NCBI GenBank assembly: GCA_035708085.1
Contig: DASSTE010000055.1
Coordinates: forward strand, 1,975 to 65,974
DNA from: Gammaproteobacteria bacterium
Lineage (GTDB): Bacteria > Pseudomonadota > Gammaproteobacteria > Natronospirales > DASSBR01
Direction: 5' to 3'
DNA length: 64,000 bases
Notes under the pieces: model-generated
Told to the model about the DNA's origin: nothing
Seen by the model: only the letters and a program-made list of their open reading frames with translations
Databases searched by the model: none
In this document: positions 4,884 through 27,501 of the stretch, one piece after another
How positions within the stretch are numbered: the first letter of the stretch is position 1
Layout: the number at the start of each line of letters is the position of its first letter
Translations under genes and position numbers: made by a program

Positions 4884-4896
4884 GCCAGCGCCCTCC

Positions 4897-7314: not shown

Positions 7315-7327
7315 GCGTTTTCTCCCT

Positions 7328-9778: not shown

Positions 9779-9789
9779 CGTTGTTCCTC

Positions 9790-12225: not shown

Positions 12226-12232
12226 AATTCTT

Positions 12233-14677
12233 TCATTGCTCCATGATCGCGACAGCAGGATCCAGCTTCGCGGCGCGCCGCGCCGGCAGGTAACATGCAG
12301 CCAAAGTGATGAGGCACAGCACGATCGCACTCGAAATCAACGTCGCGGGATCGAACGGCGAGACACCAAACAACTGCGCCGAAATCAGATAGCCGCACAG
12401 CACCGCGAGGCCCAGCCCTATGACCAGACCGATCGCGAGCAGCCGCAATCCGTCCTTCAGGATGAGCCACTGCAGGTCACGCGGCAGCGCGCCAAGCGAC
12501 AGGCGAACACCGCATTCGGCGCGGCGCTGACCAACGGCATAGCTCATGACGGCGTAAACGCCGACAATCGCAAGAGCCAGCGCAATGGCACCAAACGCCA
12601 GCAACAGCCCCATCGTCGTTTGCCGGCGGCGCAGCAAATCCGCCATCTGGTCGCGCATCGTATGCATCTGGCTCACGGCGAATTTCGGCGCCACGGCAGC
12701 TACCAGATCTTTCACCGGTTGCCTGAGCGAGGCTGGCGGCAACTTGGTGTGGATCAGCAGGAACATGTCGCTGGACGGCGTCGTGTCCATGTTGAAATAG
12801 GTCGCGGGCGTCGACTGCGGCTGAGACAAATGCGAGTACTTGATCGGCGGCACGACGCCCACGATCGTCCACTTGTGGCCGTAGTACCAGAGCTGTTGGC
12901 CAACAGGATCGTCACCATGGAAATATTTGTCGACGACCGAGGTGTCGACTATCGCCCGCCTTTTCCCCGCGTCACGTGCATCGAAGCGGCGGCCGCGCAG
13001 AATTGGAATGCCGAGCGTCTGGAAAAACCCGGGGGTGATGCGATCCATCATCGCGAGCGGCAGCTTTCCGGAGGGCGACTTGCGCCCGACGATGGCGATC
13101 GGGTGAGCGAGGTCACCGCCCATTAACGGCATGAGGTCGGAAACGCCTGCACTGACGACACCGGGCAGCGTATCGATCCGCTGTACCACTTCCTCGTACT
13201 TCGCGCTCATCGCCTCGCGGCTCGAAAAATCGTCCCACGACACGGTCAGATGCGCGATCAGCATATGATCCGTGCGAAACCCCGGATCGACCCTTTGGAT
13301 ATTCACGAAGCTGTGCAGGAGCAGCCCGGCCATCGCGAGCAACCCGGTCGCCAGTGTCAGTTCCGCGACGACGAGTGCATTGCGCGCACGTTTCGCGCTA
13401 CGCCCGCCGCCGCTGGTGCGACTGCCGTCCTGCAGGATCATTTGCAAGTCGGTTCCAGCGAGGTGGCGAATCGGCAGCACACTCACCAGCGCAGCCGTGA
13501 GCAGGACCGCGCCCAGCGCAAACAGTCCAACGCGCCAATCCAGCCCGATATCAAAAACGCTGGCGCCGGCACCGAGCGCGGAGCCGGCGAGGAAGTCCAG
13601 GCCCAGCCATGCGAGCCCGATGCCGATGAGTCCGCCGGGGACTGTCAAACACAAGGCTTCTCCCAGCAATTGCCGTGCCAGCGCGGCGCGTGTCGCGCCC
13701 AAGGCGCTGCGCATGGCCATTTCATGACTGCGGCCGAGGATACGCGACAGCAGCAGGTTCGCGACGTTGACGCAGGTAATCAAAAGGATCAGCAGCACCG
13801 CGCCTTGCAGCAGCCACAGGGTTGCCGGCCTCTTACCGAGCAGCTCTTGCCGGTAAGGCCGCGTATGTAAGGCGAATCCGGAGTTGTGCAAAAACGCCTT
13901 GTCGATTCGGCGACCGTCCTCCTTGAACGGCACATGGCCATCCAGCCAGTTATGAACGGCATGTTGAATCTGCTGTTCGGCACCATCCACACTGGCGCCG
14001 GGTTTGAGCCGGCCGATGAAATTGAAGTTGAGATCGAGGAATCGGTTGGGCTTGAAAGCCTCCGGGCCAACTGCCACCGGCGTCCACATCTCGGCGTCGT
14101 GACCGGGAAACGCGAAGCTTTTGGGCATCACGCCGATGATCTTGTACGGCAAGCTCAGGAACGTGACAGTCGTACCAATGACGCCGGGGTCGCCGCCGAA
14201 GGTGTCGCGCCACATGGCATAGCTGATCACCGCCACCTGGTTGCGTCCCTTCTGCTCGTCGGCGGCGGTGAACGTGCGACCCAGCAGCGGCTGCACGCCC
14301 AGCACCCGAAATAGCGAGCCGGCAACCAGGTAATCATAGACATCCATCGCCCGGCCGCCGACCTTCACGTTGATATCATCGCCGTAGTAAAGTCCGGTCG
14401 CGGCGAAAGCATTCGTCTTCGTCTCGATGATCCGGTTCATCAACAGCGAAACGGGCACGTCGCCGCCCCCGAATTTCGGCACTCCTACATGGACCTCCGC
14501 CAGCCGCCCGGCATGCGGATACGGCAGCGGCTTGAACAGGTAGCCGCTCAGGATGCTGAACACGGCGGTGTTTGCGCCAATGCCGAGCGCGAGCGTCAGG
14601 ATCGCAGCGACGGCGAAACCGGGTTTGGTGGCCAGTTGTCGCAGCCCGACGCGCAGGTCATTCAGAAAGCCATTCAT
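12233..14677 (-). CDS. ADOP-type duplicated MacB/FtsX ABC permease, paralog 4 (subfamily A)
   Basis: 814 aa ORF with the same architecture. Shares the subfamily-A motifs with paralogs 2 and 6. Confidence 0.93.
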   Translation of the reverse strand: MNGFLNDLRVGLRQLATKPGFAVAAILTLALGIGANTAVFSILSGYLFKPLPYPHAGRLAEVHVGVPKFGGGDVPVSLLMNRIIETKTNAFAATGLYYGDDINVKVGGRAMDVYDYLVAGSLFRVLGVQPLLGRTFTAADEQKGRNQVAVISYAMWRDTFGGDPGVIGTTVTFLSLPYKIIGVMPKSFAFPGHDAEMWTPVAVGPEAFKPNRFLDLNFNFIGRLKPGASVDGAEQQIQHAVHNWLDGHVPFKEDGRRIDKAFLHNSGFALHTRPYRQELLGKRPATLWLLQGAVLLILLITCVNVANLLLSRILGRSHEMAMRSALGATRAALARQLLGEALCLTVPGGLIGIGLAWLGLDFLAGSALGAGASVFDIGLDWRVGLFALGAVLLTAALVSVLPIRHLAGTDLQMILQDGSRTSGGGRSAKRARNALVVAELTLATGLLAMAGLLLHSFVNIQRVDPGFRTDHMLIAHLTVSWDDFSSREAMSAKYEEVVQRIDTLPGVVSAGVSDLMPLMGGDLAHPIAIVGRKSPSGKLPLAMMDRITPGFFQTLGIPILRGRRFDARDAGKRRAIVDTSVVDKYFHGDDPVGQQLWYYGHKWTIVGVVPPIKYSHLSQPQSTPATYFNMDTTPSSDMFLLIHTKLPPASLRQPVKDLVAAVAPKFAVSQMHTMRDQMADLLRRRQTTMGLLLAFGAIALALAIVGVYAVMSYAVGQRRAECGVRLSLGALPRDLQWLILKDGLRLLAIGLVIGLGLAVLCGYLISAQLFGVSPFDPATLISSAIVLCLITLAACYLPARRAAKLDPAVAIMEQ

Positions 14678-14688
14678 CTCCTACCCCT

Positions 14689-17151
14689 TTACTGCTCCAT
14701 CATGGCTATGGCCGGGTCGAGCCTTGCCGCGCGACGGGCAGGCAGCCAGCAAGCGAGCAGCGTGATCGCCGCCAAAACGATGACGGTGCCAATGAGCGTG
14801 ATGGGATCGTAGGGCGCAATGCCGAACAGCCGCGACGACAGGACGAAGCCGAATATCACCGCGAGACCCAGCCCGGTAATCAGCCCGATGCCGAGCAGTT
14901 TCAGGCCGTCCTTTATTATCAGCCACAGCAAATTTTCGGGTAGCGCGCCCAAGGCAAGTCGAATGCCGCACTCCGCCCGCCTCTGCCCGACCGCGTAGCT
15001 CATTACGCCGTACACGCCGACTACCGCCAGCGCCAGCGCGATGCCGCCGAAGGCAAGCAGCAGGAGCACGACCATCTGCTTGTTGCTCAGGCTGCCCGCA
15101 ACGACCTGGCGCATGGTCTTTATGTTGTACAGCGCGGCCACGGGGTTAATCTTTTGGACTGTCTGCCGCAACGTCTTGATCAGCATGTCCGGCGGAATTG
15201 AGGTGCGGACAAACAAGCGCGTACGGGTAATGGCCATACGCGCAACATTCTCGTAAACCTGATAGGTCGGATTGGTTTTATCCAGGCCGCGGACTTTGAT
15301 CGGCGCCGCTACGCCCACAATGCGCAGCCACTCCTCCTTCTTATGCAGAAAGCGGTAATGAGCAATTCTTTTGCCGATGGCATGGCCATTGAAGTATTTG
15401 TCGGCGAAGTTCCTGCCGACGACGGCGGTAGGCAGACCAGTAGCGGTATCGCTTGTGAAGCCATGCCCCTTCAACAAAGGAATGCCGAGAGTCTTGAAGT
15501 ACTCTGACGTTACCGGATTGACAATCGCTTTCGGCGGCGGTCCATTTCCTCGTGGATGACCTTGTATGTCCCAGCCATCAATCCATAAGCCGGTAAGCGG
15601 CACCCAGGCACCGACGGCGGCGTACTCTACACTCGGCAGCGCCCGGACATGACGCAGCAGGTCGACCCGAAAGGCGTTCATCGAATGCTTGAGCTGCTCG
15701 CGGTGTTCAGGCGTGTCTGAAAGATTGCTGGCGGAGACTGCCTGAGGCGGTACGAACACCCGCGCCGTCAGCATGTTGTTGATATTGAAACCCGGATCGA
15801 CATGCTCCACGTTCACGAAGCTGTGCAGAAGCAAGCCGGCGCTGGCCAGCAGGGCGGTCGCAAGTGCCAGTTCGCCGGCTACCAATGCCCCGCGTACGCG
15901 TCGAGAGCCGCGACTGCCGGATGCTGTGCGGCCACCCTCCTGAAGCACATTTTGAAGGTCTGTTTTTGCCAGATGAAAAATCGGCAAGACGCTGACCAAC
16001 AGCCCGACGCCGCACACGACACAAAGCGCGAACAGGCCAACCCGCCAGCCCATGTCTATGCTTGCATTCCCAGCCTGTGACGAGGCAAGACGGATAAGGC
16101 GCAAGCATAGCCAACCGATGCCAATGCCCGCGAGTCCGCCTGGCACGGCAAGGCAGAACGCTTCAACGACAAGTTGACGTGCAAGCATGGCACGGCTGGC
16201 GCCGAGCGCGCTGCGCATCGCCATTTCGTGGCCGCGCCCCAGGATGCGCGCCAGCAGCAAGCTTGCGACGTTGATGCAGGCAATCAGAAGAACCAGTAGT
16301 ACCGCCGCTTGCAGCAGGAGCAGCGTCAGCGCCTTGCTGTCAATGTGTCTGTCAGCGAGCGGCTGAGTGTCGAGGCGGTAGCCGCTGTGCTTCAGCCTAG
16401 CCGGCTCAATCATGCTGCGAATACGCGTTGCGGCTGCCTCTATTTGCGGCTTTAATTCGGCCCGTGTCGCGTGCGGCGCGAGGCGCCCGATCAACTGGTA
16501 TTCCATCGCCATCGGGTGAGCCTTCAGTTCCGCCGGCTTGATCGTCAGAGGTGCCCAGTACCCGATGTCGCTGCTCGGAAACTCGAATCCCGGCGGCATC
16601 ACTGCGCGTATGCGGTAGATATCCTCATTCAACTTGATCGCACGCCCGATGATATTCGGGTCGCCGCCAAATTTGCTTTGCCACAAGTGATAGCTGATGA
16701 CGACTACGCTGCCCTGGCCGGGCCGGTCATTCGCCATAGTGAACGTGCGCCCGAGCAGCGGTTTGACGCCCAGAGTTTTGAACAGGGATCCCGTCGCCTT
16801 GACCCCGGAAATGACATTCGCCCGCCCGTCGGTGCGCAAGTTTGCGGACGTGGTCGAAAATGCCGCGACGCTCGAAAAGGCGTTAACGTGATCCCGGAGG
16901 TCATCATAGAGGGGAAGAGAGCCCCACATGTCCATGTTTCCGCCGAACTTCGGCATTTGGGTGTAAATATTGGTCAGTTGCTCGCTGTGTGGATACGGCA
17001 GCGGCTTCAACAGGTAATCGTTGAGCACGCTGAATACGGCCGTGTTCGCACCGATGCCGAGCGCGAGTGTCAGGATTGCGGCGACGGCGAAGCCGGGTTT
17101 GGTGGCCAGTTGTCGCAGTCCGAAACGCAGGTCATTCAGAAAGCCATTCAT
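14689..17151 (-). CDS. ADOP-type duplicated MacB/FtsX ABC permease, paralog 3
   Basis: 820 aa ORF with the same N-terminal, central and C-terminal FtsX motifs. Its periplasmic domains are divergent. Confidence 0.93.
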   Translation of the reverse strand: MNGFLNDLRFGLRQLATKPGFAVAAILTLALGIGANTAVFSVLNDYLLKPLPYPHSEQLTNIYTQMPKFGGNMDMWGSLPLYDDLRDHVNAFSSVAAFSTTSANLRTDGRANVISGVKATGSLFKTLGVKPLLGRTFTMANDRPGQGSVVVISYHLWQSKFGGDPNIIGRAIKLNEDIYRIRAVMPPGFEFPSSDIGYWAPLTIKPAELKAHPMAMEYQLIGRLAPHATRAELKPQIEAAATRIRSMIEPARLKHSGYRLDTQPLADRHIDSKALTLLLLQAAVLLVLLIACINVASLLLARILGRGHEMAMRSALGASRAMLARQLVVEAFCLAVPGGLAGIGIGWLCLRLIRLASSQAGNASIDMGWRVGLFALCVVCGVGLLVSVLPIFHLAKTDLQNVLQEGGRTASGSRGSRRVRGALVAGELALATALLASAGLLLHSFVNVEHVDPGFNINNMLTARVFVPPQAVSASNLSDTPEHREQLKHSMNAFRVDLLRHVRALPSVEYAAVGAWVPLTGLWIDGWDIQGHPRGNGPPPKAIVNPVTSEYFKTLGIPLLKGHGFTSDTATGLPTAVVGRNFADKYFNGHAIGKRIAHYRFLHKKEEWLRIVGVAAPIKVRGLDKTNPTYQVYENVARMAITRTRLFVRTSIPPDMLIKTLRQTVQKINPVAALYNIKTMRQVVAGSLSNKQMVVLLLLAFGGIALALAVVGVYGVMSYAVGQRRAECGIRLALGALPENLLWLIIKDGLKLLGIGLITGLGLAVIFGFVLSSRLFGIAPYDPITLIGTVIVLAAITLLACWLPARRAARLDPAIAMMEQ

Positions 17152-17163
17152 GCCCTACCCCCT

Positions 17164-19617
17164 CTACTGCTCCATCATCGCTATGGCTGGGTCGAGCTTT
17201 GCCGCGCGTCGCGCCGGCAGATAACACGCGGCCAGCGTGATGAAGCACAGCACGATGGCACTGCCAATCAGCGTCAGCGGATCAAACGGTACAACCCCGA
17301 ACAACTGCGACGAAATCAGGAAGCCGCATAACACGGCGAGGCCAAGGCCGAGAACAAGGCCGACCGCAAGCAGCTTCAAACCATCCTTCAATATCAACCA
17401 TTGCAAATCGCCCGGCAGCGCGCCAAACGCCAAACGAACGCCGCATTCGGCGCGCCGCTGTCCCACGGCGTAACTCATCACGGCATACACGCCGACAATC
17501 GCAAGCGCCAACGCAATCCCACCAAACGCGAGCAGCAAAGTCATCGTTGTCTGGTTATCGTTCAGCGAATCCAACAATTGCGCGTGCATGGTGTGGATGT
17601 CGGCAACGGCGACATTCGGCGCTATCGCGGCCAGCAGGTTTTTTACCGGCTTGATGAGCGCAGCTGGTGGCAGCTTGGTGTGGATGACAAGATACATATC
17701 GGGCGTCACACTGTATTTGCCGATGTCGATGTAAACGGCGGCCGACAATTTGGGCTGCGACAATCTCGTGTATTTGACCGGCGGCACAACGCCGACAATG
17801 GTGTAGATCTGTTTTGCGCCATAGTCGATCTTTTGCCCGATCGGGTTCACACCGCGAAAATACTTTTTGACCACGCGGGCATCGACGATCGCATGCATCT
17901 TGCCCGCATCGCGTTCATCGAAGCGTCGCCCGCGTAAAATCGGGATGCCGAGCGTTTTGAAATAGCCTGGGCTGATAAAATCCTGAATAGCCCCCGGCGA
18001 CTCGCCCGAAGGCTGCGGTGGCCGGCCGGGGATGGTGAAGCCGTTGAAAATTGCCATATTGCTCATCGGCACGGAAGCGGTAATCCCGGATTGCCAAACG
18101 CCAGGCAGTCCATCCACGCGCTTCACCACGTGGTTGTAAAACTGGCTCATCGCTTTGTCGTCCAAATAATCCTTGGGCGACAACAGAAGCTGCGCGATCA
18201 ATACATGGTCCTTGCGAAAACCGGGATCGACGGCTTCAAGATTCATAAAGCTGTGCAGCACCAGGCCGGCGATCGCAAGCAAGCCGGTCGCGAGCGCCAG
18301 TTCGGCAATAACGAGCGTATTGCGGACGCGCTTTGCGCCTCGCCCCGCGGTGCTGCGGCTACCCTCCTGCAAAGCAATTTGCAGATCAGTTTTGGCGAGT
18401 TGGCAGATCGGTAAAACGCTAATCAAGGCCGCGGTGACCAGCGCCGCGCCAAGTGCAAATAACCCGACGCGCCAGTCAAGCGCGATGTCGAATATGCTGC
18501 TACCAACGCCGAGAGCTGAGCCCGCCAGAAAGTGCATGCCGAACCAGGCGAGGCCGAAGCCGATCAAGCCACCGGGCACTGTCAGGCACAACGCCTCGCC
18601 AAGCAGTTGTCGCGCCAGCGCGCCCCGGGTCGCGCCAAGCGTGCTGCGGATCGCGATTTCATGGCCGCGCCCGAGAATGCGCGACAGCAACAGGTTGGCA
18701 ACGTTGACGCAGGTGATCAGCAAAATCAGTAACACCGCGCCTTCCAGCAGCCATAAGGTCGCTGGACGGTTGCCGAGCAATCCCTGCCGGTACGATTGGG
18801 CGCGCATCGAAAACCCCATGCTCTTTAGCAGTTTCCGGTTGTACATGAGGTTGCCCACTTTGATGGGGAAATTATTGTCGGTCCATGTCTGAACCGCTTG
18901 CCGTACTTGCCGTTGCGCCGTCGCGATGCTGACGCCGGGTTTGAGCCAGCCAATAAATCGAGTATCGAGTGCCGATAGAAACCGCGTCGGATCGAAAGTT
19001 TTGGGAACGATCGGTTGCGGTAACCATATCGAGATGTCGTGGTCCGGGAACGCGAAGCCGCGCGGCATTACGCCGACGATTCGATAATCCTCGCTTTCAA
19101 TATTGACGGCCTTGCCGATGATGTTGGGGTCTGCGCCGAACGTAGTGCGCCAGAGCGAATAACTGATGACTACAACCTGGTCGCTGCCAGGCTTCATGTC
19201 GGCTTTGGTGAAGGTATGCCCGAGCATGGGCTGCACGCCGAGAACGCGAAACAGCGACGCCGTAGTGATCAGCCCGCCGACGCGCTGCGCGCGTCTGGCG
19301 GCGTTCAGATTGAAATAGTCGCGATGGTAAACGGCACCAGCGGCAAAGGCCTTGGTGTGCCTTTGAACGATTTGATACATCGGCATCGAGATACCGGAAT
19401 CACCGCTGCTAAATTTTGGAAGCTCCGTGTTAAGTTGCGCCAACCGGCCGGCGTGCGGGTACGGTAGCGGCTTGAACAGATAGCCGCTCAGAACGCTGAA
19501 CACCGCCGTATTGGCGCCGATGCCAAGCGCCAGCGTGAGGATGGCCGCGGCGGCAAATCCAGGCTTGGCTGTAAGTTGATGAATGCCAAAACGCAGGTCT
19601 GTGAGAAAGCCGTTCAT
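17164..19617 (-). CDS. ADOP-type duplicated MacB/FtsX ABC permease, paralog 2 (subfamily A)
   Basis: 817 aa ORF. By eye it is closest to paralog 6 along its whole length. Confidence 0.93.
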   Translation of the reverse strand: MNGFLTDLRFGIHQLTAKPGFAAAAILTLALGIGANTAVFSVLSGYLFKPLPYPHAGRLAQLNTELPKFSSGDSGISMPMYQIVQRHTKAFAAGAVYHRDYFNLNAARRAQRVGGLITTASLFRVLGVQPMLGHTFTKADMKPGSDQVVVISYSLWRTTFGADPNIIGKAVNIESEDYRIVGVMPRGFAFPDHDISIWLPQPIVPKTFDPTRFLSALDTRFIGWLKPGVSIATAQRQVRQAVQTWTDNNFPIKVGNLMYNRKLLKSMGFSMRAQSYRQGLLGNRPATLWLLEGAVLLILLITCVNVANLLLSRILGRGHEIAIRSTLGATRGALARQLLGEALCLTVPGGLIGFGLAWFGMHFLAGSALGVGSSIFDIALDWRVGLFALGAALVTAALISVLPICQLAKTDLQIALQEGSRSTAGRGAKRVRNTLVIAELALATGLLAIAGLVLHSFMNLEAVDPGFRKDHVLIAQLLLSPKDYLDDKAMSQFYNHVVKRVDGLPGVWQSGITASVPMSNMAIFNGFTIPGRPPQPSGESPGAIQDFISPGYFKTLGIPILRGRRFDERDAGKMHAIVDARVVKKYFRGVNPIGQKIDYGAKQIYTIVGVVPPVKYTRLSQPKLSAAVYIDIGKYSVTPDMYLVIHTKLPPAALIKPVKNLLAAIAPNVAVADIHTMHAQLLDSLNDNQTTMTLLLAFGGIALALAIVGVYAVMSYAVGQRRAECGVRLAFGALPGDLQWLILKDGLKLLAVGLVLGLGLAVLCGFLISSQLFGVVPFDPLTLIGSAIVLCFITLAACYLPARRAAKLDPAIAMMEQ

Positions 19618-19664
19618 GTTGTATCTCTAGTCCCCTTAACGTCCGGGAGCGGGAAATGGAGAAG

Positions 19665-22106
19665 TCACTGCTCCACGATCGCTACGGCCGGGTCGAGCTT
19701 CGCCGCACGACGTGCCGGTAGATAACACGCGAGCAGCGTGATGACAGCCATGACGATGGCGGTACCGGCCAACGTCAGCGGGTCGAACGGCGCGACACTG
19801 AACAGGCGCGCCGAGAGCAGGTACCCCATCACGACAGCGAGGGCCAGGCCCACCACCAGGCCGACCGCGAGCAGCTTGAGCCCGTCCTTCAACACCAGCC
19901 ACAGCAGGTCCTCGGGCAGCGCGCCCAGGGCCAGGCGCACTCCGCACTCGGTGGTACGCTGACCGACGGCGTAGCTCATGACGCCGTAAACACCGATGAT
20001 GGCGAGGGCCAGCGCGATTGCGCCAAATGCGAGGATCAGAATCATCAGCGACTGGCGACCTTGCAAGTTGTGCGCGATCAGGTCCTGCACCGATTCAAAG
20101 TCATTGGCGGTGGCGCCGGGAGCAACCTGCGCTACTGTGGCCTTGATCGCCTTGACCTGCGAATAAGGCGGCAGCGTGGTCTGGACCACGAGCGCAAGCG
20201 CCCCTCCCCGCTGCGCAAGCATCGCCAGCCATTGGGCCGACTGGCTCACCGGGAAATAGGCGGTGCCCATGTTGTTCGCGCGACTCAGTTGCTCTGCGCG
20301 CATCGACGAAACAACACCGACGATCGTGGTTTTCGTATCCCCCATTTTCAGGGTGCGCCCGACAGGATTTTTGCCGGGATACGCCTGTTGTGCCATGACG
20401 TCATCGATCACCATGACAGGCTGGCTGTGCGCAGTATCCTGCGCATTGAACAGCCGCCCGCGCAGCAGCCGCAAGCCAAGCGTATTGAAATACCCGGTAT
20501 CGGTAATATTCCACCAGGCGAATGGCGCATACTTCGGCCGCCCCGGGACTTCATAGCTGCCGTTGACCCCGTAGCTGAGCGGCAACTGCAACGCCACGCC
20601 CGCGCTTTCCACCCCCGGCACGGCATGGATTTGATCGAGCAATTGATGGTAAAAACTCGCCGCGGCCTCGCCCGACACCTGCGGCGGCGGCGCAACTTTG
20701 GCCGTCAAGACATGGCTTGTGCGAAAACCGGGATTGATGCCGCTTAACTCAATGAAACTGTGCATCAGCAGCCCGGCGCCGGCGAGAAGCGCGGCCGCCA
20801 GAGCCATTTCAGCCACAGCCAGAACATTGCGAACGTGCCTGGCGCCGCGCCCACCGCCGATGCTGCGGCCGCCTTCCTGCAAGATGCCTTGCAGGTTGCC
20901 CCGACTGAAATGTCTGATGGGCAAGAGGCTGATTACAACCGCCACCAGGAGTACAGCCCCAAACGTAAATACACCGACGCGCCAATCGGGGTTTATGGTG
21001 AAAATCTGCGATCCTCCGAGGCCCAGATTTTGTACGAAGCCGAGCGCCCACCAGCCGAGTGCCATACCGGCGATGCCGCCGGGCACCGCCAGGCAAAGGC
21101 CTTCGATCAACAGTTGGCGTGCAAGGACTCCGCGAGTCGCGCCCAGCACGCTGCGCATGGCGAGTTCATGCGTGCGGCCGAGAATGCGTGCGAGCAAGAG
21201 GTTGGCGACGTTGACGCAGGCGATCAAAAGAACCATCAGTACGGCCGCCTGCAGCAAGAACAGGGTCGAGTCTTCGTCGCCGACGAGCTTGTCGCGATAC
21301 GGACGTGCGTTCCAGTCAAGGCCGACCTGGTCCTGCGACTGTTTCATTTCCGAACTGGTATCGATAACCTGATCGAGAACCGCCGCTAGTCGTGCATTCG
21401 CCTGCTGCAGGCTCACGCCCGGCTTCAGTCGCGCAATCACCGGCGAATTCTGGTTGCGCCGGAATGCTTCCGATTTCATCTTCGCGGTCATCACGTACGG
21501 CGTCCACAGCCGCGCCAAACCGAAACCGATATCGACATTCATGGTTCGTGGCATCACACCGATGATCGTGTACGGCTCCCCATTCAACTTGATGGACTGG
21601 CCGATCACGCTCCGGTCGGCGCCGAAGGTCTGTTGCCAGAAACTGTAGCTCAACACGACAACATGACCGCGCCCGGGCTGCTGCGCGGTACTGTCAAAGG
21701 TGCGCCCAAGCAGCGGTTTGACGCCGAGCACATCGAATAACGACGCCGTCGCCATCGACGCATGTACCCGCTGCGTCTGACCCCCCGCCTGCACGGCATA
21801 ACTTCGCCACGTCCACGCGCCGATCGACGAGAACACGTCATGAGTGTTTTGTTTGATGCTCAGATAGTTCGGCAGCGATAACGGCGCATGCTGAATCCCC
21901 GGCTTGATCTGATGCTCGCTGACGTCTACCAGTTGCTCACTGTGCGGGTACGGCAGCGGTTTCAGCAGATAGCCGTTGAGCACACTGAACACGGCTGTAT
22001 TGGCGCCAATGCCGAGCGCCAGCGTCAGGATCGCCGCAGCCGCGAAGCCGGGCTTCGATGCCAGCTGGCGCAGGCTGAACCGCAGGTCCGTTAACAGGCC
22101 GTTCAT
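19665..22106 (-). CDS. ADOP-type duplicated MacB/FtsX ABC permease, paralog 1 (first after the ATPase)
   Basis: 813 aa ORF (MNGLLTDLRFSLRQLASKPGF...). Its N-terminal periplasmic region most resembles paralog 7. It starts 18 nt after the ATPase stop. Confidence 0.93.
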   Translation of the reverse strand: MNGLLTDLRFSLRQLASKPGFAAAAILTLALGIGANTAVFSVLNGYLLKPLPYPHSEQLVDVSEHQIKPGIQHAPLSLPNYLSIKQNTHDVFSSIGAWTWRSYAVQAGGQTQRVHASMATASLFDVLGVKPLLGRTFDSTAQQPGRGHVVVLSYSFWQQTFGADRSVIGQSIKLNGEPYTIIGVMPRTMNVDIGFGLARLWTPYVMTAKMKSEAFRRNQNSPVIARLKPGVSLQQANARLAAVLDQVIDTSSEMKQSQDQVGLDWNARPYRDKLVGDEDSTLFLLQAAVLMVLLIACVNVANLLLARILGRTHELAMRSVLGATRGVLARQLLIEGLCLAVPGGIAGMALGWWALGFVQNLGLGGSQIFTINPDWRVGVFTFGAVLLVAVVISLLPIRHFSRGNLQGILQEGGRSIGGGRGARHVRNVLAVAEMALAAALLAGAGLLMHSFIELSGINPGFRTSHVLTAKVAPPPQVSGEAAASFYHQLLDQIHAVPGVESAGVALQLPLSYGVNGSYEVPGRPKYAPFAWWNITDTGYFNTLGLRLLRGRLFNAQDTAHSQPVMVIDDVMAQQAYPGKNPVGRTLKMGDTKTTIVGVVSSMRAEQLSRANNMGTAYFPVSQSAQWLAMLAQRGGALALVVQTTLPPYSQVKAIKATVAQVAPGATANDFESVQDLIAHNLQGRQSLMILILAFGAIALALAIIGVYGVMSYAVGQRTTECGVRLALGALPEDLLWLVLKDGLKLLAVGLVVGLALAVVMGYLLSARLFSVAPFDPLTLAGTAIVMAVITLLACYLPARRAAKLDPAVAIVEQ

Positions 22107-22124: not shown

Positions 22125-22862
22125 TTATTCGGCAACTGGCGAGGCTGCCGGAGCCGGATTGGCGATGGTGATGTCCTCGTCGACGATCTGGCCGTCGAAG
22201 AGCTGGATCGTGCGTGCGGCGCGGGTCGCGTAACGCGGATCATGCGTGACCATGCAAATCGTTGCGCCGGCATGGTGCAACTCGTCCATCAGTTCCATTA
22301 CCGCCTCGCCACTGGCCGAATCCAGATTACCGGTCGGCTCGTCGGCGAGCAGAATCGAGGGCTCGCCAACCAGTGCGCGAGCCACGGCAACGCGCTGCTG
22401 CTGACCGCCGGAAAGCTGCGACGGGTAATGGTTGACGCGGTGCGCCATGCCGACCCGTTCCAGCACCGTATTCACCTTTTCGCGCCGTTCTTCCTTGCTC
22501 GTGCCGCCGCGATACACCAGCGGCAGCTCGACGTTCTCATACACGCTTAAGTCGCCGATCAGGTTGAACGTCTGGAAAATGAAACCGATCTCGCGATTAC
22601 GGATGTGCGCCCGGTCGGCATTGTCGAGTTCCTCAACCGCCGTGCCGTTCAACTGATAAGTGCCGCTGGTCGGTGTCGACAGCAGGCCGAGGATCGACAT
22701 CAGCGAGGTCTTGCCGCAGCCGGAGGGGCCGAGGATGGCGACGTATTCGCCACGGTCGATGTCGAAGCTGATGCCGTTCAGCGCGTACGTCTCGACTTCG
22801 TCGGTGGCGTAGATCTTTTTCAGGTTGTCGATTCTGATCAGCTGCATTTCATCGTCTTTCAT
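22125..22862 (-). CDS. ABC transporter ATP-binding protein, MacB/LolD/FtsE-type stand-alone NBD
   Basis: Walker A GPSGCGKTS, signature LSGGQQQR, Walker B ILLADEPTGNLD, H-loop VTHD. I prefer ATG 22862 (MKDDEMQLIRI...) because GGAG lies 6 nt upstream. The ORF-track start at 22889 would overlap the adaptor gene by 8 nt. Confidence 0.92.
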   Translation of the reverse strand: MKDDEMQLIRIDNLKKIYATDEVETYALNGISFDIDRGEYVAILGPSGCGKTSLMSILGLLSTPTSGTYQLNGTAVEELDNADRAHIRNREIGFIFQTFNLIGDLSVYENVELPLVYRGGTSKEERREKVNTVLERVGMAHRVNHYPSQLSGGQQQRVAVARALVGEPSILLADEPTGNLDSASGEAVMELMDELHHAGATICMVTHDPRYATRAARTIQLFDGQIVDEDITIANPAPAASPVAE

Positions 22863-22881
22863 CGTTTGCTCCGGTTTGCGA

Positions 22882-24153
22882 TTACCCATGACTCAACTCG
22901 ATTCGGTCGTACTGGCTCCATTGGGAGGTATCCGACACAATGACCTTGTCGCCCGGCTTGAGCCCGGCGACGACCTGTACGGCGTTGGCCGACGTGCGGC
23001 CCAGTTCAACTTTGGTGCGCGTCGCCAGATCGCTGCCCGGCACCAGCCGGAACACGCTCAGCGTGTCGCCCGCCTGCACGCCTGCCGGGCGATCCATGTA
23101 GAGCACGTTATCGAGCTTCGCGAGGACGATTTCGCCCTGCACGTCCAAGCCGCTGCGCAGATCCTTCGGCGGATCGCCGACCGGCGCGACATCGATTTCG
23201 ACGGTGCCGTTCTCCACCGTCGGATTGACGCGAATGACCTTGCCGACGAAAGTGCTGTTGGCGCCGCCGAACGCGGTCAGCATCACGTGCTGGCCGATCG
23301 CGATTGCGCCCGCCTGCGATTCGGCGACCTGCAGCTTAGCCATCAGGTTGTTCTGCTGCGCGATGCGCGCGATGTCCGCGCCAATCGCCAGGTGTTGGCC
23401 GTCCTGCACCGCGACTTGCGTCACGATGCCGGTCATGCCGGCTTTCACCTGCAGGTTGTCGAGGTCGCGCTCACGCGCGGCGAGGTCGGCCTTGAGCTGC
23501 GCGACTTCCGCCTGCTTCGCGTTGACCTGCGCATCGAGGCTCGCCTTGAACTGCTGAATACGCTGCTTGTCGGATGCCACCTTCTGCTTGAGTTGTTCCG
23601 CCTTCGCGACAGTCTGCCGGTAATCCAATTCGGAGATAATGTGTTCCTTGACGACCTGCGCCTGAGCCTTTTTCTGGAACTGCGCGACCTGGTAGTTGCT
23701 CTCGTCCTGCGCCAGCGTGTTTTCGAGATCGAGCAACTGGCTTTGCAGTTGCGCCTTCAGCGATGCCAGATCCGCCTTGCCCGTTGCTACCTTCGTCTTC
23801 GCCTGCGCCACCGCCTGCACGACCTCCGGGTTGTGCATGACGACCAGAACGCTGTCCGGCTTGACATGATCGCCCGGCCGCACCAGGCGCTTCTCGACCA
23901 CCCCGGCGGCGGGCGCAGTGACCCATTGAATAACGCGCGGCGTCAAAACACCCGACGCCTGCACGGTAATCGTCAGCGGACCCTGCTTGACGGTGCTGAC
24001 CAGCACCGACGAGCGCGGCACGCTGGGCGCGGCAGGCTTAAGAAATGCGACCAGCACGATCGCGGCAATAACGACTGCGGCGGCGGAACCGATCAGCGCG
24101 AAGCGCTTGCGCTGACGTTTGCGGCGATGTTCGGCGGAACGGGGCTTGTCCAT
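22882..24153 (-). CDS. HlyD/MacA-family periplasmic adaptor (membrane fusion protein)
   Basis: N-terminal basic stretch plus TM (RKRFALIGSAAAVVIAAIVLVAF), then a long coiled-coil (QAKTKVATGKADLASLKAQLQSQLLDLEN...) and beta-barrel-like C-terminal domains. The ORF-track start (TTG 24189) is replaced by ATG 24153 (MDKPRSAEH...), which has AGAGGA 5 nt upstream and lies downstream of the sigma-54 promoter. Confidence 0.9.
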   Translation of the reverse strand: MDKPRSAEHRRKRQRKRFALIGSAAAVVIAAIVLVAFLKPAAPSVPRSSVLVSTVKQGPLTITVQASGVLTPRVIQWVTAPAAGVVEKRLVRPGDHVKPDSVLVVMHNPEVVQAVAQAKTKVATGKADLASLKAQLQSQLLDLENTLAQDESNYQVAQFQKKAQAQVVKEHIISELDYRQTVAKAEQLKQKVASDKQRIQQFKASLDAQVNAKQAEVAQLKADLAARERDLDNLQVKAGMTGIVTQVAVQDGQHLAIGADIARIAQQNNLMAKLQVAESQAGAIAIGQHVMLTAFGGANSTFVGKVIRVNPTVENGTVEIDVAPVGDPPKDLRSGLDVQGEIVLAKLDNVLYMDRPAGVQAGDTLSVFRLVPGSDLATRTKVELGRTSANAVQVVAGLKPGDKVIVSDTSQWSQYDRIELSHG

Positions 24154-24189
24154 GAAATCCTCTGGTTGCGGGTTATACCGTATACGCAA

Positions 24190-24204
24190 GCAAAAACCAT
24201 GCCA
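24190..24204 (-). promoter_or_regulatory. sigma-54 (-24/-12) promoter P1 for the adaptor-ATPase-permease operon
   Basis: The minus strand reads TGGCAT-GGTTT-TTGC, with the invariant GG and GC at the canonical spacing. The predicted transcription start is near 24179, about 26 nt upstream of ATG 24153. An NtrC-type activator gene is adjacent. Confidence 0.75.
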
Positions 24205-24270
24205 AACTGACGTTGTCGTTATCTTTCCAGTGGTTACGCATTTATTTTAAGGTTGATGATAAGATGCGAA

Positions 24271-24307
24271 TGTTCGATTATGGGACGGCGCGTCCCATAA
24301 TCGAACA
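24271..24307. promoter_or_regulatory. UAS1: 17-N3-17 perfect palindrome, candidate enhancer-binding-protein site for P1
   Basis: TGTTCGATTATGGGACG-CGC-CGTCCCATAATCGAACA on the minus strand. It lies 66 bp upstream of the TGGCAT of P1. It matches UAS2 at 32 of 37 positions. Confidence 0.7.
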
Positions 24308-24330
24308 CATGAAGCCATTCCCGATACCTC

Positions 24331-24561
24331 TCACTCATAGCGGACTCGCCCATACGCCAGAAGCGAACTCAACTCGCCGCAACGGCGGGGCATTTTTCTA
24401 CGGCCGTCAGCACACGCAACGTTTTCGCGCCGATCCGTCGCCAAAACCACCACGTCAGGCAACTCGCAGCGTCGAGCTGCAAGCTCATTGCTGCAGGCGG
24501 CGAGCCCTTTTCTACGCGAGCCCCCAGTTTCGAGCGTAGGCACACGCAATAATCCGTTCAT
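24331..24561 (-). CDS. candidate small basic Cys-containing protein (76 aa), or the non-coding body of a sigma-54-dependent short transcript
   Basis: ATG at 24561 with GGAGA 7 nt upstream, about 56 nt downstream of the predicted P2 start. The peptide MNGLLRVPTLETGGSRRKGL... has 4 Cys, 13 Arg, no TM segment and no signal peptide. By my count 30 of 76 codons end in A/T (AGA x2, CGA x2, TTA), which is atypical for this genome, so coding status is uncertain. Confidence 0.3.
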   Translation of the reverse strand: MNGLLRVPTLETGGSRRKGLAACSNELAARRCELPDVVVLATDRRENVACADGRRKMPRRCGELSSLLAYGRVRYE

Positions 24562-24628
24562 GTCACTATCTCCGAATTACCGTCCAATACTGATCCACTT
24601 CAACAGCGGACCTCCTGCATTTACTCAA

Positions 24629-24643
24629 GCAAATACTGTGCCA
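24629..24643 (-). promoter_or_regulatory. sigma-54 (-24/-12) promoter P2, a duplicate of P1
   Basis: The minus strand reads TGGCAC-AGTAT-TTGC, a consensus -24/-12. From TGGCA onward, 19 of 24 positions match P1, including the downstream TTGxGTAxA. Confidence 0.75.
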
Positions 24644-24707
24644 ATACTGCTGTTGGATGTATTTCAAGCACTTAGCGTTTAGTTGCCATGCGCAAGGCGG
24701 TAACATT

Positions 24708-24744
24708 TGTTCGATTCCGGGACGTCGCGTCCCGTAATCGAAGA
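24708..24744. promoter_or_regulatory. UAS2: 17-N3-17 near-perfect palindrome, candidate enhancer-binding-protein site for P2
   Basis: TCTTCGATTACGGGACG-CGA-CGTCCCGGAATCGAACA on the minus strand. It lies 64 bp upstream of the TGGCAC of P2. It sits 40-80 bp upstream of the divergent activator gene start. Confidence 0.7.
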
Positions 24745-24785
24745 TCGTGTACCATGCGGCAGCATTGAAAAGCGCACATTTCGCC

Positions 24786-26153
24786 ATGCCCCAGCCCAAC
24801 ATTCTCATTGCCGACGACAAGCAGCACATTCTCGACAGCCTGCGACTGCTGCTGAAGAGCGAGAACTTGCGCCCGCTGTGCGTACAGTCGCCCGCCGCGG
24901 CGCTGGAAGCGCTGCGCACGCAGGTTTTTGATGCCGCCTTGATCGACCTCAACTACACCCGGGACACCACCTCCGGCGCAGAGGGGCTGGAACTGCTACA
25001 GGCCCTGCATCGTCTGGACGACAGCCTGCCGGTCATCGTCATGACGGCCTGGGGCAGCGTGGAACTTGCCGTCGAGGCCATGCGCCAGGGCGCGGCGGAT
25101 TTCATCGAGAAGCCATGGGACGACGCGCGTCTGCTCAGCGTGCTGCGCAACCAGATTGCGCTGGCGCACGCGCTCAAGCAGGGCCGCCGACTGAACGCGG
25201 AAAATGCCTTACTGCGCGAACGCCGGCCGATCCAATTCATCGCCGAGTCGCCCGCGATGCGGGAAATCATGCGGCTTGCCGAGCAGGTGGCGTCCGCCGA
25301 TGCGGCCGTGCTGATCACCGGGGAGAATGGCACAGGCAAGGGAGTGCTGGCGCGGCACATTCATGATCTTTCCGCGCGCGCCGGGCAACCCTTCATTCGC
25401 GTCAACCTCGGCGGGCTGGCGGAGTCGCTGTTCGAAAGCGAGTTGTTCGGCCACGTCAAAGGTGCGTTTACCGATGCCAAGTCCGACCGCATGGGCCGCT
25501 TTGAACTGGCCGACGGCGGAACGCTGTTTCTGGATGAAATCGGCAACCTGACGATGGAACAGCAGGCGCGGCTGTTGCATGTGCTGGAGGAAGGCGAATT
25601 CGAACGGGTCGGCGCTTCGCGGCCGATCCGGGTCGACGTGCGTATCGTGTCAGCAACGAACGTCGATCTGCAAAGAGCGATCAGCTCCGGGCATTTCCGC
25701 AAGGATTTGTATTACCGGCTCAACACGGTGCGCATCGAATTGCCGCCGTTGCGCGACCGCCCACAGGACATCGAGCCGTTGACCATGCAGTTCCTGGCAC
25801 ACAATGCGCAACGCTACGGCAAAACCATATCCGGTCTCGCCCCCGAGGCCGCCGCGGCTCTCGCCCGCTATCCCTGGCCCGGCAACGTCCGCGAACTGCA
25901 GCACGTGATGGAGCGCGCAGTACTGCTTGCCCAGGGCGATGTTCTGACGGCGCAGGATCTGCGGCTGGAGACCGGCGACGCGATCGGCGATACCGCCGGC
26001 ATGGAATACATGACGCTCGCCGACGCCGAGCAGCATTTGATTCGCGCGGCGCTGCATCGCTGCGGCGGCAGCGCCAACGAAGCGGCTGCGGTGCTCGGAG
26101 TAAGTCGAAGCGCTCTGTATCGAAGGTTGCAGCGGTATGGCATCGGCGATTAG
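24786..26153 (+). CDS. sigma-54-dependent response regulator (NtrC family: REC + AAA+ + Fis-type HTH)
   Basis: REC domain (NILIADDKQ..., AALIDLNY, VIVMTAWGS, FIEKP). AAA+ domain (GENGTGKGVLARHIH, ESELFGHVKGAFTDA, which is the GAFTGA-type loop, FLDEIG). C-terminal HTH (AAAVLGVSRSALYRRLQRYGI). The start could instead be GTG 24747. Neither start has a strong SD. Confidence 0.92.
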   Translation: MPQPNILIADDKQHILDSLRLLLKSENLRPLCVQSPAAALEALRTQVFDAALIDLNYTRDTTSGAEGLELLQALHRLDDSLPVIVMTAWGSVELAVEAMRQGAADFIEKPWDDARLLSVLRNQIALAHALKQGRRLNAENALLRERRPIQFIAESPAMREIMRLAEQVASADAAVLITGENGTGKGVLARHIHDLSARAGQPFIRVNLGGLAESLFESELFGHVKGAFTDAKSDRMGRFELADGGTLFLDEIGNLTMEQQARLLHVLEEGEFERVGASRPIRVDVRIVSATNVDLQRAISSGHFRKDLYYRLNTVRIELPPLRDRPQDIEPLTMQFLAHNAQRYGKTISGLAPEAAAALARYPWPGNVRELQHVMERAVLLAQGDVLTAQDLRLETGDAIGDTAGMEYMTLADAEQHLIRAALHRCGGSANEAAAVLGVSRSALYRRLQRYGIGD

Positions 26154-27501
26154 CCACCGTGCCGGAACGCGGAAACGCGGGAGTCGATCCCGGCGGCCGC
26201 GTTCGTTCGAGACGCGTCTCGCGCTGTGGATCCTGGTCGCCGCCCTGCCCGCTCTGCTCGGCTTCGCAATTCTGTTATGGCGCGTCCGTGCCCCGCCACC
26301 GGCGTGGATCGCCTTCGCATTATCGCTCTGCTGGCCGCTGGCGGTTGCACTTCGCGGGCGCCACCGCTTCACTTACGCTTTGCGCACGCTCACCAACCTG
26401 ATGGAATCGCTCAAGGAAGGCAGCTATACGCTGCGCGGTACGCACGCGCACAAGCCGGGTGTGCTGGGCGAGGTGACCGACCACCTCAACGCGCTCGCGG
26501 CGAGCCTGCAAGGCGAGCGCGTCGCATCGCAGGAAGCCGGGGCGCTGCTGAGCAAGGTGGTGGATGAAGTCGATATTGCTGTCCTCACGTTCGATGACCT
26601 GGAACGGCTGACATTCATTAACCCGGCCGGCGAGCATCTGCTCGGCGAAGATCGCAAAACACTGATGTACCGCCCGGCGGCGGCGCTGCAACTAAGCTCG
26701 CTGCTGCGTGGGCCGCAGGCCGCGACGGTGCAGCGTAGTTTTCCCGGCGGTGCCGGGCCCTGGGATGTACGCCGGCGAATCTTCCGGCAGGAAGGCCATC
26801 GCCGTCACCTGCTGGTCATGACAGACGTCAGCCGCGCGCTGCGTGAGGAAGAACGGCATGCATGGCATCAACTGATTCGCGTGCTGGGCCACGAGATCAA
26901 CAATTCTCTGGCGCCGATTCGCAGCACCGCCTCGACATTGGCACGTCTGGCACAAAAGGAACCCCTGCCGGCAGACTGGCGTGCCGACATGGCCGAGGGT
27001 CTGGATCTGGTGGGCAAGCGGGCCGAATCGCTGCGCCGCTTCATGCGCGCCTACACGATGCTTGCACGGCTGCCACCGCCAAAGAAGCGGCGAGTGCGGC
27101 TCGCACCCCTGGTCGCGCGTGTGGCAGCGTTCGATCCGCGTCGGCGCGCGTCGGTGTCGTCGGGTCGACCGTTGACAATCGAGGCGGATGCCGACCAGAT
27201 CGAACAGGCGCTGATCAACCTCGTCAAGAACGCGATCGATGCGACCGAGGAAGGCGGCGGCGAGGTGACGATTCAGTGGCAGGCGAAAGACGGTGAGGCG
27301 GTGATCGAGGTGATCGACGACGGCCCCGGTCTCGCCGGCAGTCAGAACCTGTTCGTGCCGTTCTTCACAACCAAGCCCGGCGGTAGCGGGATCGGTCTGG
27401 CGCTGGGGCGGCAGATCGCGGAAGCGCATGGTGGCACGCTCACGCTCGAAAACCGCCGCGATGCATACGGCTGCGTCGCGCGGCTGTCGCTGCCGCTTTA
27501 G
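26137..27501 (+). CDS. sensor histidine kinase (two N-terminal TM segments, linker/PAS-like region, HisKA, HATPase_c)
   Basis: H-box LIRVLGHEINNSLAPIRS, N-box LINLVKNAIDA, G-boxes DDGPGL and GGSGIGLALGRQI. It overlaps the regulator gene by 17 nt. Its stop lies 1 nt from the stop of the convergent lipoprotein gene. Confidence 0.9.
   Translation: MASAISHRAGTRKRGSRSRRPRSFETRLALWILVAALPALLGFAILLWRVRAPPPAWIAFALSLCWPLAVALRGRHRFTYALRTLTNLMESLKEGSYTLRGTHAHKPGVLGEVTDHLNALAASLQGERVASQEAGALLSKVVDEVDIAVLTFDDLERLTFINPAGEHLLGEDRKTLMYRPAAALQLSSLLRGPQAATVQRSFPGGAGPWDVRRRIFRQEGHRRHLLVMTDVSRALREEERHAWHQLIRVLGHEINNSLAPIRSTASTLARLAQKEPLPADWRADMAEGLDLVGKRAESLRRFMRAYTMLARLPPPKKRRVRLAPLVARVAAFDPRRRASVSSGRPLTIEADADQIEQALINLVKNAIDATEEGGGEVTIQWQAKDGEAVIEVIDDGPGLAGSQNLFVPFFTTKPGGSGIGLALGRQIAEAHGGTLTLENRRDAYGCVARLSLPL

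Follow-up and report, generated by a model that had tools for sequence, protein, structure and literature searches.

Several described bacterial systems share parts of their design with a divergent intergenic region that we analysed in a Gammaproteobacteria bacterium (GenBank assembly GCA_035708085.1), in which two candidate sigma-54 promoters, P1 and P2, each with its own palindromic upstream activator site (UAS1 and UAS2), lie between an efflux pump operon and the genes of a two-component system. The stretch of DNA covers 64,000 nt (contig DASSTE010000055.1, positions 1,975 to 65,974 of the forward strand) and is referred to as the window, and all positions without a locus name are positions in it. 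At glnAp2/glnAp1, controlled by NtrC, and at Ps/Pr, controlled by XylR, tandem dimer sites on one face of the DNA nucleate the oligomer of the enhancer-binding protein (EBP), and at the XylR-dependent promoter Pu, integration host factor (IHF) bends the DNA between enhancer and promoter. The enhancers of NtrC (at glnAp1) and XylR (at Pr) also overlap a sigma-70 promoter that the activator represses, which for XylR is that of its own divergent gene. In ZraSR-zraP, PspF-pspA, and CpxRA-cpxP, a small feedback protein is encoded divergently from the regulator and controlled by it, in the case of zraP and pspA via sigma-54. For AtoC, the NtrC-family response regulator that activates the neighbouring sigma-54 operon atoDAEB in Escherichia coli, a 40-bp palindrome consisting of two inverted 20-bp sites has been verified (PMC3118216). 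Finally, the Bce modules of Firmicutes (BceRS-BceAB; PMC9169098, PMC11009047) couple an FtsX-superfamily ABC permease genetically to a two-component system.

The explanation of the twin-module locus that we favour, with fairly high confidence, combines several of these features. The 633-bp divergent intergenic region would carry two co-directional sigma-54 promoters, each with its own palindromic enhancer centred about 110 nt upstream of the transcription start and an IHF-like bending site about 31 nt before the -24 element. Upon an inducing signal, a kinase of the intramembrane type would phosphorylate the adjacent NtrC-type regulator, which would bind both palindromes, with two adjacent dimer sites nucleating the active oligomer. 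From the more symmetric UAS1, P1 would start an operon of at least 24 kb encoding a HlyD adaptor, one ABC ATPase, and at least nine ADOP permeases. From the less symmetric UAS2, presumably a site of lower affinity, P2 would start the gene of a 76-aa basic protein and read-through into the pump operon. As UAS2 would also lie over the -35 region of the weak promoter of the regulator gene, it could provide negative autoregulation at high activator levels.

In its general layout, the locus resembles AtoSC, as an NtrC-family response regulator would activate a neighbouring sigma-54 operon from a single long palindromic enhancer with two inverted halves of about 20 bp upstream of the promoter (PMC3118216), and AtoC is the top NCBIfam match of the regulator (382 bits). 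However, the operator sequences are unrelated, the target is an efflux operon instead of one for fatty-acid catabolism, two enhancer-promoter units are present instead of one, and the kinase lacks a periplasmic domain. The putative tandem dimer sites, the IHF-like site, and an enhancer that would lie over the promoter of the regulator gene are features in common with the NtrC and XylR systems. In contrast to these, the overlap in the window is deduced from a -10-like hexamer, and the second sigma-54 promoter is co-directional and has a full enhancer of its own.

Conservation and architecture of the two modules

A genome scan with the regulator yielded 80 loci, among which the divergent layout was found only in L001 and L002 (both 95%), L003 (81%), L048 (80%), and L004 (77%), all of them metagenome-assembled genomes of soil Gammaproteobacteria. 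Metagenomes scanned with the regulator contained only relatives of at most 60% identity and no additional orthologous intergenic regions. A search with the small open reading frame (ORF) behind P2 added L161-L164, which belong to the L048 lineage, and L165-L170, which represent a new lineage, resulting in seven comparable lineages in all. In roughly 150 loci with 55-60% identity, the genes are arranged differently, with the pump genes and the response regulator-histidine kinase pair on the same strand, and the palindrome is missing; these loci were thus unusable for footprinting. In the following, P1 and UAS1 are referred to as module 1 and P2 and UAS2 as module 2.

Features of the intergenic region:
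24189..24204, minus strand: P1, candidate sigma-54 (-24/-12) promoter TGGCAT-GGTTT-TTGCT, kept in 7/7 lineages
24628..24643, minus strand: P2, candidate sigma-54 (-24/-12) promoter TGGCAC-AGTAT-TTGCT, kept in 6/7 lineages
24271..24307: UAS1, putative proximal enhancer, perfect palindrome TGTTCGATTATGGGACG-CGC-CGTCCCATAATCGAACA, present in 7/7 lineages
24708..24744, minus-strand reading: UAS2, putative distal enhancer, imperfect palindrome TCTTCGATTACGGGACG-CGA-CGTCCCGGAATCGAACA, kept in 6/7 lineages
24662..24674, minus strand: IHF-like core of module 2, TAAGTGCTTGAAA, with one deviation from YAANNNNTTGATW and its start 31 nt ahead of TGGC
24224..24236, minus strand: module 1 counterpart of the IHF-like core, TAACCACTGGAAA, two mismatches and weak in the window, at the same position as the core elsewhere

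A direct reading of the minus strand of positions 23900-25100 reproduced every sequence and coordinate of the initial annotation, an earlier description of the window made from the sequence alone. The 24-nt stretches of P1 (TGGCATGGTTTTTGCTTGCGTATA, 24204-24181, minus strand) and P2 (TGGCACAGTATTTGCTTGAGTAAA, 24643-24620, minus strand) are identical at 19 of 24 positions upon recounting, the same likeness as originally reported, and both the promoter pair and the UAS pair also emerged from an independent search for direct and inverted repeats. In both promoters the GG and GC doublets are exactly 10 nt apart, in line with TGGCAC-N5-TTGCW, and each has a single mismatch to YTGGCACGrNNNTTGCW. The two promoter matches are not due to chance: the pattern TGGCAY-N5-TTGCW (TGGCAYNNNNNTTGCW) occurs three times in the window compared to 0.17 +/- 0.40 times in shuffled sequences, with none of 100 shuffles reaching three matches. 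This corresponds to an enrichment of approximately 18-fold, whereas the looser pattern TGGC-N7-TTGC is enriched merely about 2-fold. The third match (TGGCACGGCAATTGCT, 13665-13680, minus strand) is perfect, but falls within the gene of the fourth ADOP permease and has no palindrome upstream, and is thus probably due to chance. The distance from TGGC to the ATG of the HlyD gene is 49-51 nt in all seven lineages, and P2 lies about 80 nt ahead of the ATG of the small ORF in six of them. Transcription is predicted to start near 24179 for P1, about 26 nt before the HlyD ATG, and at approximately 24617-24620 for P2.

UAS1 is a perfect 17-N3-17 palindrome (24307-24271), UAS2 (24744-24708) agrees with it at 32 of 37 positions, and the spacers between the enhancers and their promoters measure 66 and 64 nt, all as initially described. 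Within the window, exact matches to the half-site TTCGATTNNGGGACG are confined to the four arms of UAS1 and UAS2; no further copy of the palindrome was present in the window or elsewhere in the 170 fetched loci. The UAS1 centre is located 84-87 nt from the -24 GG and that of UAS2 82.5-83.5 nt, so that the centres of all 13 sites in the seven lineages fall within 82.5-87 nt. Expressed as the distance from palindrome to TGGC, the values are 101-104 nt in module 1 and 99-101 nt in module 2. The central statement of the initial annotation, that two sigma-54 promoter/enhancer units of the same design lie beside an NtrC-type activator gene, therefore extends to the relatives, which keep both the layout and the spacing of 99-104 nt.

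This fixed geometry also bears on whether the palindromes are operators at all. They might instead belong to a dispersed repeat of the REP type, or serve as terminators or stabilisers in the form of RNA hairpins, and UAS1 would indeed form a 17-bp hairpin in any transcript reading through from P2, while the copy count rests on the window and the fetched loci. We regard this explanation as scarcely credible, as the 64 kb contain just two copies and the fetched loci none at other places, the distance to the -24/-12 element is fixed in 13 instances from seven lineages, no consistent T-rich tract follows UAS1 across lineages, and UAS2 is located upstream of P2 and not downstream of any co-directional gene.

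As candidate operators, the palindromes have a distinct internal structure. A half-site consensus of nnTnTTCGnTTnnGGGA was obtained from 26 arms, with a gap of 7-9 nt from GGGA to TCCC. The complete site, TTCG-N5-GGGA-N7-TCCC-N5-CGAA, consists of four conserved blocks at intervals of 9-11-9 nt, which places them on one face of the helix about one turn apart. The UAS thus probably represents two adjacent pseudo-dyads, each accommodating one dimer, as at other EBP enhancers. The view that a 37-bp operator is unusually long had to be given up, since the AtoC palindrome spans 40 bp (PMC3118216). Symmetry is higher in UAS1 than in UAS2 in all six lineages that have both sites (matched arm positions out of 17 for UAS1/UAS2: 15/13, 16/10, 14/10, 14/12, 11/9, and 11/10), suggesting a strong proximal and a weaker distal enhancer, and UAS1 is presumably the site of higher affinity.

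The IHF-like sites are predictions based on the consensus match alone. The core (YAANNNNTTGATW) is found with at most one mismatch in 9 of 14 modules compared to 8.9% of shuffled spacers, is perfect in three of the 14 compared to an expected 0.5%, and occupies the same position, about 31 nt upstream of TGGC, in 10 of the 14. At the module 1 position, which matches poorly in the window, L001 and L002 have perfect matches. Only this core, the UAS, and the -24/-12 elements match between the two modules, and the spacers of modules 1 and 2 display no significant likeness (z = 0.07-2.2). The proposal that the whole enhancer-promoter cassette was duplicated is thus plausible but unproven, because with only functional elements matching, an ancient duplication and convergence are indistinguishable from sequence. 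L003 represents a natural loss of the distal module: in the region upstream of its regulator gene (5850-6000), UAS2 is absent and the -12 element of P2 reads TTTTCC, indicating that both parts of module 2 were lost together, while module 1 is intact and the small ORF is shortened to 55 aa.

A small orphan gene behind P2

Features downstream of P2:
24331..24561, minus strand: small ORF of 76 aa, MNGLLRVPTLE...CGELSSLLAYGRVRYE, with the ribosome-binding site (RBS) GGAG at 24573-24570
24592..24612, minus strand: 5'-leader hairpin of the predicted P2 transcript, GGUCCGC-UGUUGAA-GUGGAUC, kept across lineages

According to the initial annotation, P1 fires the pump operon and P2 a short upstream transcript. 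The first assignment agrees with our analysis, whereas the P2 product is better described as an mRNA for a conserved 76-aa protein. In all seven lineages, the sequence 3' of P2 comprises the leader hairpin, a GGAG-type RBS, and ATGAACG(G/A). In L167, a U-to-C change in the hairpin stem strengthens a G-U pair, and in L048 another stem (GCCGC/GCGGC) takes its place, so that pairing is retained; the hairpin perhaps contributes to mRNA stability. Among the window, L001, and L002, the ORF contains no indel over 231 nt at 74-82% DNA identity, and changes accumulate at third codon positions (30 vs. 17 and 14 at the other positions). The ratio dN/dS (omega) of nonsynonymous to synonymous substitution rates is 0.39-0.68 in frame compared to 0.8-1.5 in the other frames, and omega is significantly below 1 in the two deeper pairs (Fisher p = 0.0013 and 0.0041). 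The dS of the ORF equals that of the neighbouring genes, and its dN is about 10 times higher. The N-terminal motif MNG(F/L)(F/L)xxP(S/T)L is retained with synonymous changes, with Leu encoded by CTC, CTG, TTG, and CTT. Together, these signatures identify the ORF as a real protein-coding gene and its product as a young, fast-evolving, and clade-specific orphan.

The predicted product is basic, with 13 Arg, 4 Cys, a net charge of +6, and no hydrophobic segment. Relatives among 1.84 billion representative proteins are restricted to this clade. A word-indexed homology search with the small protein retrieved nothing, and an exhaustive phmmer search yielded P0002, which is the copy of L001 with a wrongly assigned start too far upstream, and P0003, a genuine homologue with 50% identity in the same context that keeps CELP and CGELSSLLxxGRIR; two further matches, P0004 and P0005, were false and driven by repeats. 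The single-sequence AlphaFold2 model (predicted local distance difference test score, pLDDT, of 40) was uninformative and was not used. The gene recalls zraP, pspA, and cpxP in that it is divergent from the regulator genes and would be under the regulator's control. Its product lacks a signal peptide and similarity to ZraP, CpxP, and PspA, and a feedback role like that known from those systems would be hypothetical.

Two readings dispense with the protein. Sigma-54-dependent small RNAs such as Qrr, GlmY, and CrcZ are known, and P2 could likewise drive a non-coding regulatory RNA containing a fortuitous ORF, for which the fold of the region (z = -3.4) could be taken as an indication. This z-score is, however, dominated by the UAS1 palindrome, and a scan of positions 23500-25500 against Rfam at E <= 1 returned two chance-level matches only. 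As no Rfam family matches the P2 product, no terminator follows, and a coding signal is present in the form of a conserved RBS and start codon and frame-specific substitutions, a small RNA appears highly improbable. In the second reading, translation itself would be what matters, either by covering the P2 leader of about 440 nt with ribosomes and shielding it from Rho, which would allow P2 to add to the expression of the pump, or through a leader peptide formed by the first 10-13 codons. In agreement with this, only the RBS, the ATG, and the N-terminal motif are conserved across all lineages, C-terminal sequence and length vary (the window, L001, and L002 each have 76 aa and P0003 and L004 have 77 aa, compared to only 55 aa in L003 and as many as 179 aa in L048), and the L004 ORF extends through UAS1; the high dN, the low pLDDT, and the lack of a terminator before P1 point in the same direction. 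Against it stand the omega values of the group formed by the window, L001, and L002, which are significantly lower than 1 when the entire ORF is considered, the C-terminal motifs still kept in P0003, and the length of 76-77 codons retained in four lineages, so that we consider a role without protein function possible but not likely, and favour a functional small protein.

In the L048 lineage (L048 55-1369; L161 2055-3010), the 179-aa orphan ORF behind P2 agrees with the 76-aa protein in approximately the first 13 residues only, followed by a signal peptide-like hydrophobic segment and an unrelated sequence of 150 residues. Further downstream, a remnant of the usual middle part (YRCRDL...CELP) persists out of frame, pointing to an insertion of approximately 560 nt into the small ORF. 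A separate observation concerns the opposite strand: hairpins that have T-runs and resemble terminators are located antisense to the small ORF in the window (24373-24398 and 24488-24513, plus strand), L001 (5703-5731), and L167 (2096-2068). They recur at homologous positions in several lineages, each scan alone being not significant, and coincide with two internal peptide repeats (R-R/K-K-x4-C-G-E/D, with the rare codon pair AGA AAA). Most probably, these hairpins merely result from the peptide repeat, the alternative being an antisense role.

Probable read-through and the putative promoter of the regulator gene

For the window, L001, L004, and L167, the stretch separating the small ORF from P1 was scanned without detection of a sense-strand intrinsic terminator; thus, transcripts starting at P2 probably run on into the pump operon. 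On the other side of module 2, the following element faces the regulator gene:
24750..24755, plus strand: -10-like hexamer TACCAT, putative promoter element for the divergent regulator gene, at a distance of 6 nt from UAS2

The sequences around this hexamer (GTGTACCAT/GTGTACTAT) are kept in six of the seven lineages. The location of UAS2 just upstream of the regulator gene, which had been linked to autoregulation, was confirmed, as the site ends 41 nt before the ATG and adjoins TACCAT. Autoregulation itself is plausible: UAS2 would cover the -35 region of the regulator gene, which would result in negative autoregulation at high activator levels.

The two-component system and the probable binder of the palindromes

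Divergent genes of the two-component system:
24786..26153, plus strand: NtrC-family response regulator and EBP with REC, AAA+ (GAFTDA), and HTH_8 domains, by domain search
26137..27501, plus strand: sensor histidine kinase with two transmembrane helices, a loop of about 5 residues, and PAS, DHp, and CA domains; overlaps the regulator gene

The regulator contains domains PF00072, PF00158, PF25601, and PF02954, the GAFTDA loop at residues 226-231, the phospho-acceptor Asp54, and Lys109. It thus has the receiver domain, sigma-54 AAA+ domain, and Fis-type helix-turn-helix (HTH) of a group I EBP, and its initial classification as an NtrC-type protein was correct. The nearest solved relatives are Aquifex NtrC4/NtrC1 and ZraR. 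None of the NCBIfam equivalog cut-offs is reached (score/cut-off: AtoC 382/714, NtrC 369/559, PrsR 363/503, and ZraR 350/760), and the score is also below that for LuxO. As its score is far below the AtoC cut-off, the regulator is not an AtoC orthologue, and it is best described as an unnamed member of the NtrC family. The short loop between the two transmembrane helices of the kinase predicts an intramembrane-sensing topology.

The adjacent regulator is the probable binder of both palindromes. A different EBP or a repressor could occupy them instead, with the neighbouring two-component system controlling something else, and this would be compatible with the failure of our attempt to link the regulator to the operator through its HTH: the recognition helix SRSALYRRL is almost unchanged in paralogues that appear to use other operators and cannot tell the regulator from them. 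Nevertheless, the regulator gene is directly adjacent in all seven lineages, sigma-54 promoters absolutely require an EBP and this regulator is the sole EBP at the locus, and 108 of 112 loci with homologous regulator-kinase pairs show a linkage of these to pump genes of the same kind (see below), which renders another binder quite improbable.

The near-invariance of the recognition helix is also the first of several points that weigh against the proposed mechanism as a whole, as the sequence consequently provides no specific tie between regulator and palindrome. Furthermore, no rpoN gene was seen within the window, the -24/-12 motifs being candidate sigma-54 promoters whose dependence on rpoN is a prediction, and no canonical sigma-70 promoter was detected for the regulator gene, where the -10-like hexamer has no accompanying -35 element. 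The palindrome census covers the window and the 170 fetched loci. Regarding the small gene, neither its 76-aa product nor the 179-aa ORF of L048 matches any Pfam or NCBIfam family, leaving it without a recognisable fold or family, and L003, L004, and L048 diverge strongly from the window protein after approximately residue 13, which makes a protein function uncertain outside the group of the window, L001, L002, and P0003.

The pump operon and its link to two-component systems

Genes of the pump operon:
22882..24153, minus strand: HlyD-family periplasmic adaptor, 423 aa, first pump gene
22125..22889, minus strand: MacB/LolD-type ABC ATPase, 254 aa, the sole ATPase of the operon
2478..22106, minus strand: eight complete tandem ADOP-family permeases (duplicated FtsX/MacB type), 801-846 aa, all above the TIGR03434 cut-off

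A ninth ADOP permease begins at approximately position 2458 and runs towards the start of the window, and with intergenic gaps of mostly 11-47 nt, the operon extends over at least 24 kb (1-24153, minus strand). It encodes the components of an ADOP/MacB-type tripartite efflux system, namely a duplicated MacB_PCD plus FtsX permease, a MacB/LolD-type ATPase, and a HlyD adaptor; no gene for an outer-membrane factor was seen in the operon. Identity among the permease paralogues amounts to 45-75%, with a mean pairwise identity of 0.55-0.77 in the membrane parts and 0.25-0.47 in the periplasmic domains. The GTG start listed for the fifth permease (9790-12330, minus strand) makes this gene overlap the one before it by 98 nt. 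As the ADOP profile begins at residue 40, translation probably starts about 39 codons further downstream.

The association of such pumps with this type of two-component system reaches well beyond the seven lineages. Among loci with regulator homologues at 55-60% identity and enough flanking sequence, 108 of 112 contain ABC, ADOP, or HlyD genes, usually on the same strand and upstream of the regulator-kinase pair, and 115 of 126 kinases have two N-terminal transmembrane helices with a loop of at most 15 residues. Strong sigma-54 motifs right before HlyD, ABC, or ADOP genes are found in L010, L026, L034, L040, L055, and L074. These loci have palindromes other than those of the window (e.g. GTGTCCG-N4-CGGACAC in L074) and contain neither the twin module nor the small ORF. 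Taxonomically, the linkage of regulator and kinase to pump genes (L005-L160) spans Lysobacterales, Gemmatimonadota, and Acidobacteriota. We found no description of sigma-54 control of MacB/FtsX/ADOP pumps, or of the regulator-kinase linkage, in the searchable literature.

The combination of a two-transmembrane kinase that has almost no external loop with an FtsX-family ABC permease that has a large extracytoplasmic domain is present here as in the Bce modules. In contrast to these, the regulator is a sigma-54 EBP instead of an OmpR-type protein like BceR, the kinase contains a cytoplasmic PAS domain, and the permeases are of the ADOP type with a HlyD adaptor in Gram-negative hosts. Bce modules are also defined by signalling that requires the transporter. 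The locus may therefore resemble a Bce module without being a member of this group, which we treat as a lead and not as a result. A more far-reaching interpretation, speculative and in our view unlikely, would regard the twin module as the output stage of a Gram-negative Bce counterpart. Here, a kinase without external sensor would read the activity of an ADOP/MacB-type pump and switch on at least nine permease paralogues differing in their periplasmic domains, and the weaker unit would add a young, possibly de novo-born feedback protein as well as autoregulation of the regulator.

The promoter mechanism follows the textbook sigma-54/EBP/IHF design, whereas the regulon is uncharacterised. Soil bacteria (Acidobacteriota, Gemmatimonadota, and Lysobacterales) possess ADOP permeases in large numbers, and almost nothing on these proteins was found in the searchable literature. 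The locus thus offers a testable regulatory handle on these pumps in the form of a dedicated sigma-54 two-component system with a well-defined operator. In addition, the twin modules would allow a presumably strong enhancer to be compared with a weaker one for the same activator at a single natural locus, with L003 as a natural knock-out of the weak one, and the origin and role of the small orphan gene are open to study. What sets the locus slightly above the ordinary is its very large ADOP pump battery, the orphan small gene, and the phylum-spanning link between two-component system and pump.

The right flank of the locus (27880-49035) contains additional genes for efflux and signalling, among them those for a rhodanese-domain protein, an SDR, a HlyD and MFS pair resembling EmrAB, and an adaptor with an AcrB-type RND pump. 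A GGDEF-EAL protein, a KaiC-like ATPase, a YgjP-like metallopeptidase, and a large hybrid PAS/GAF histidine kinase are encoded in the same region.

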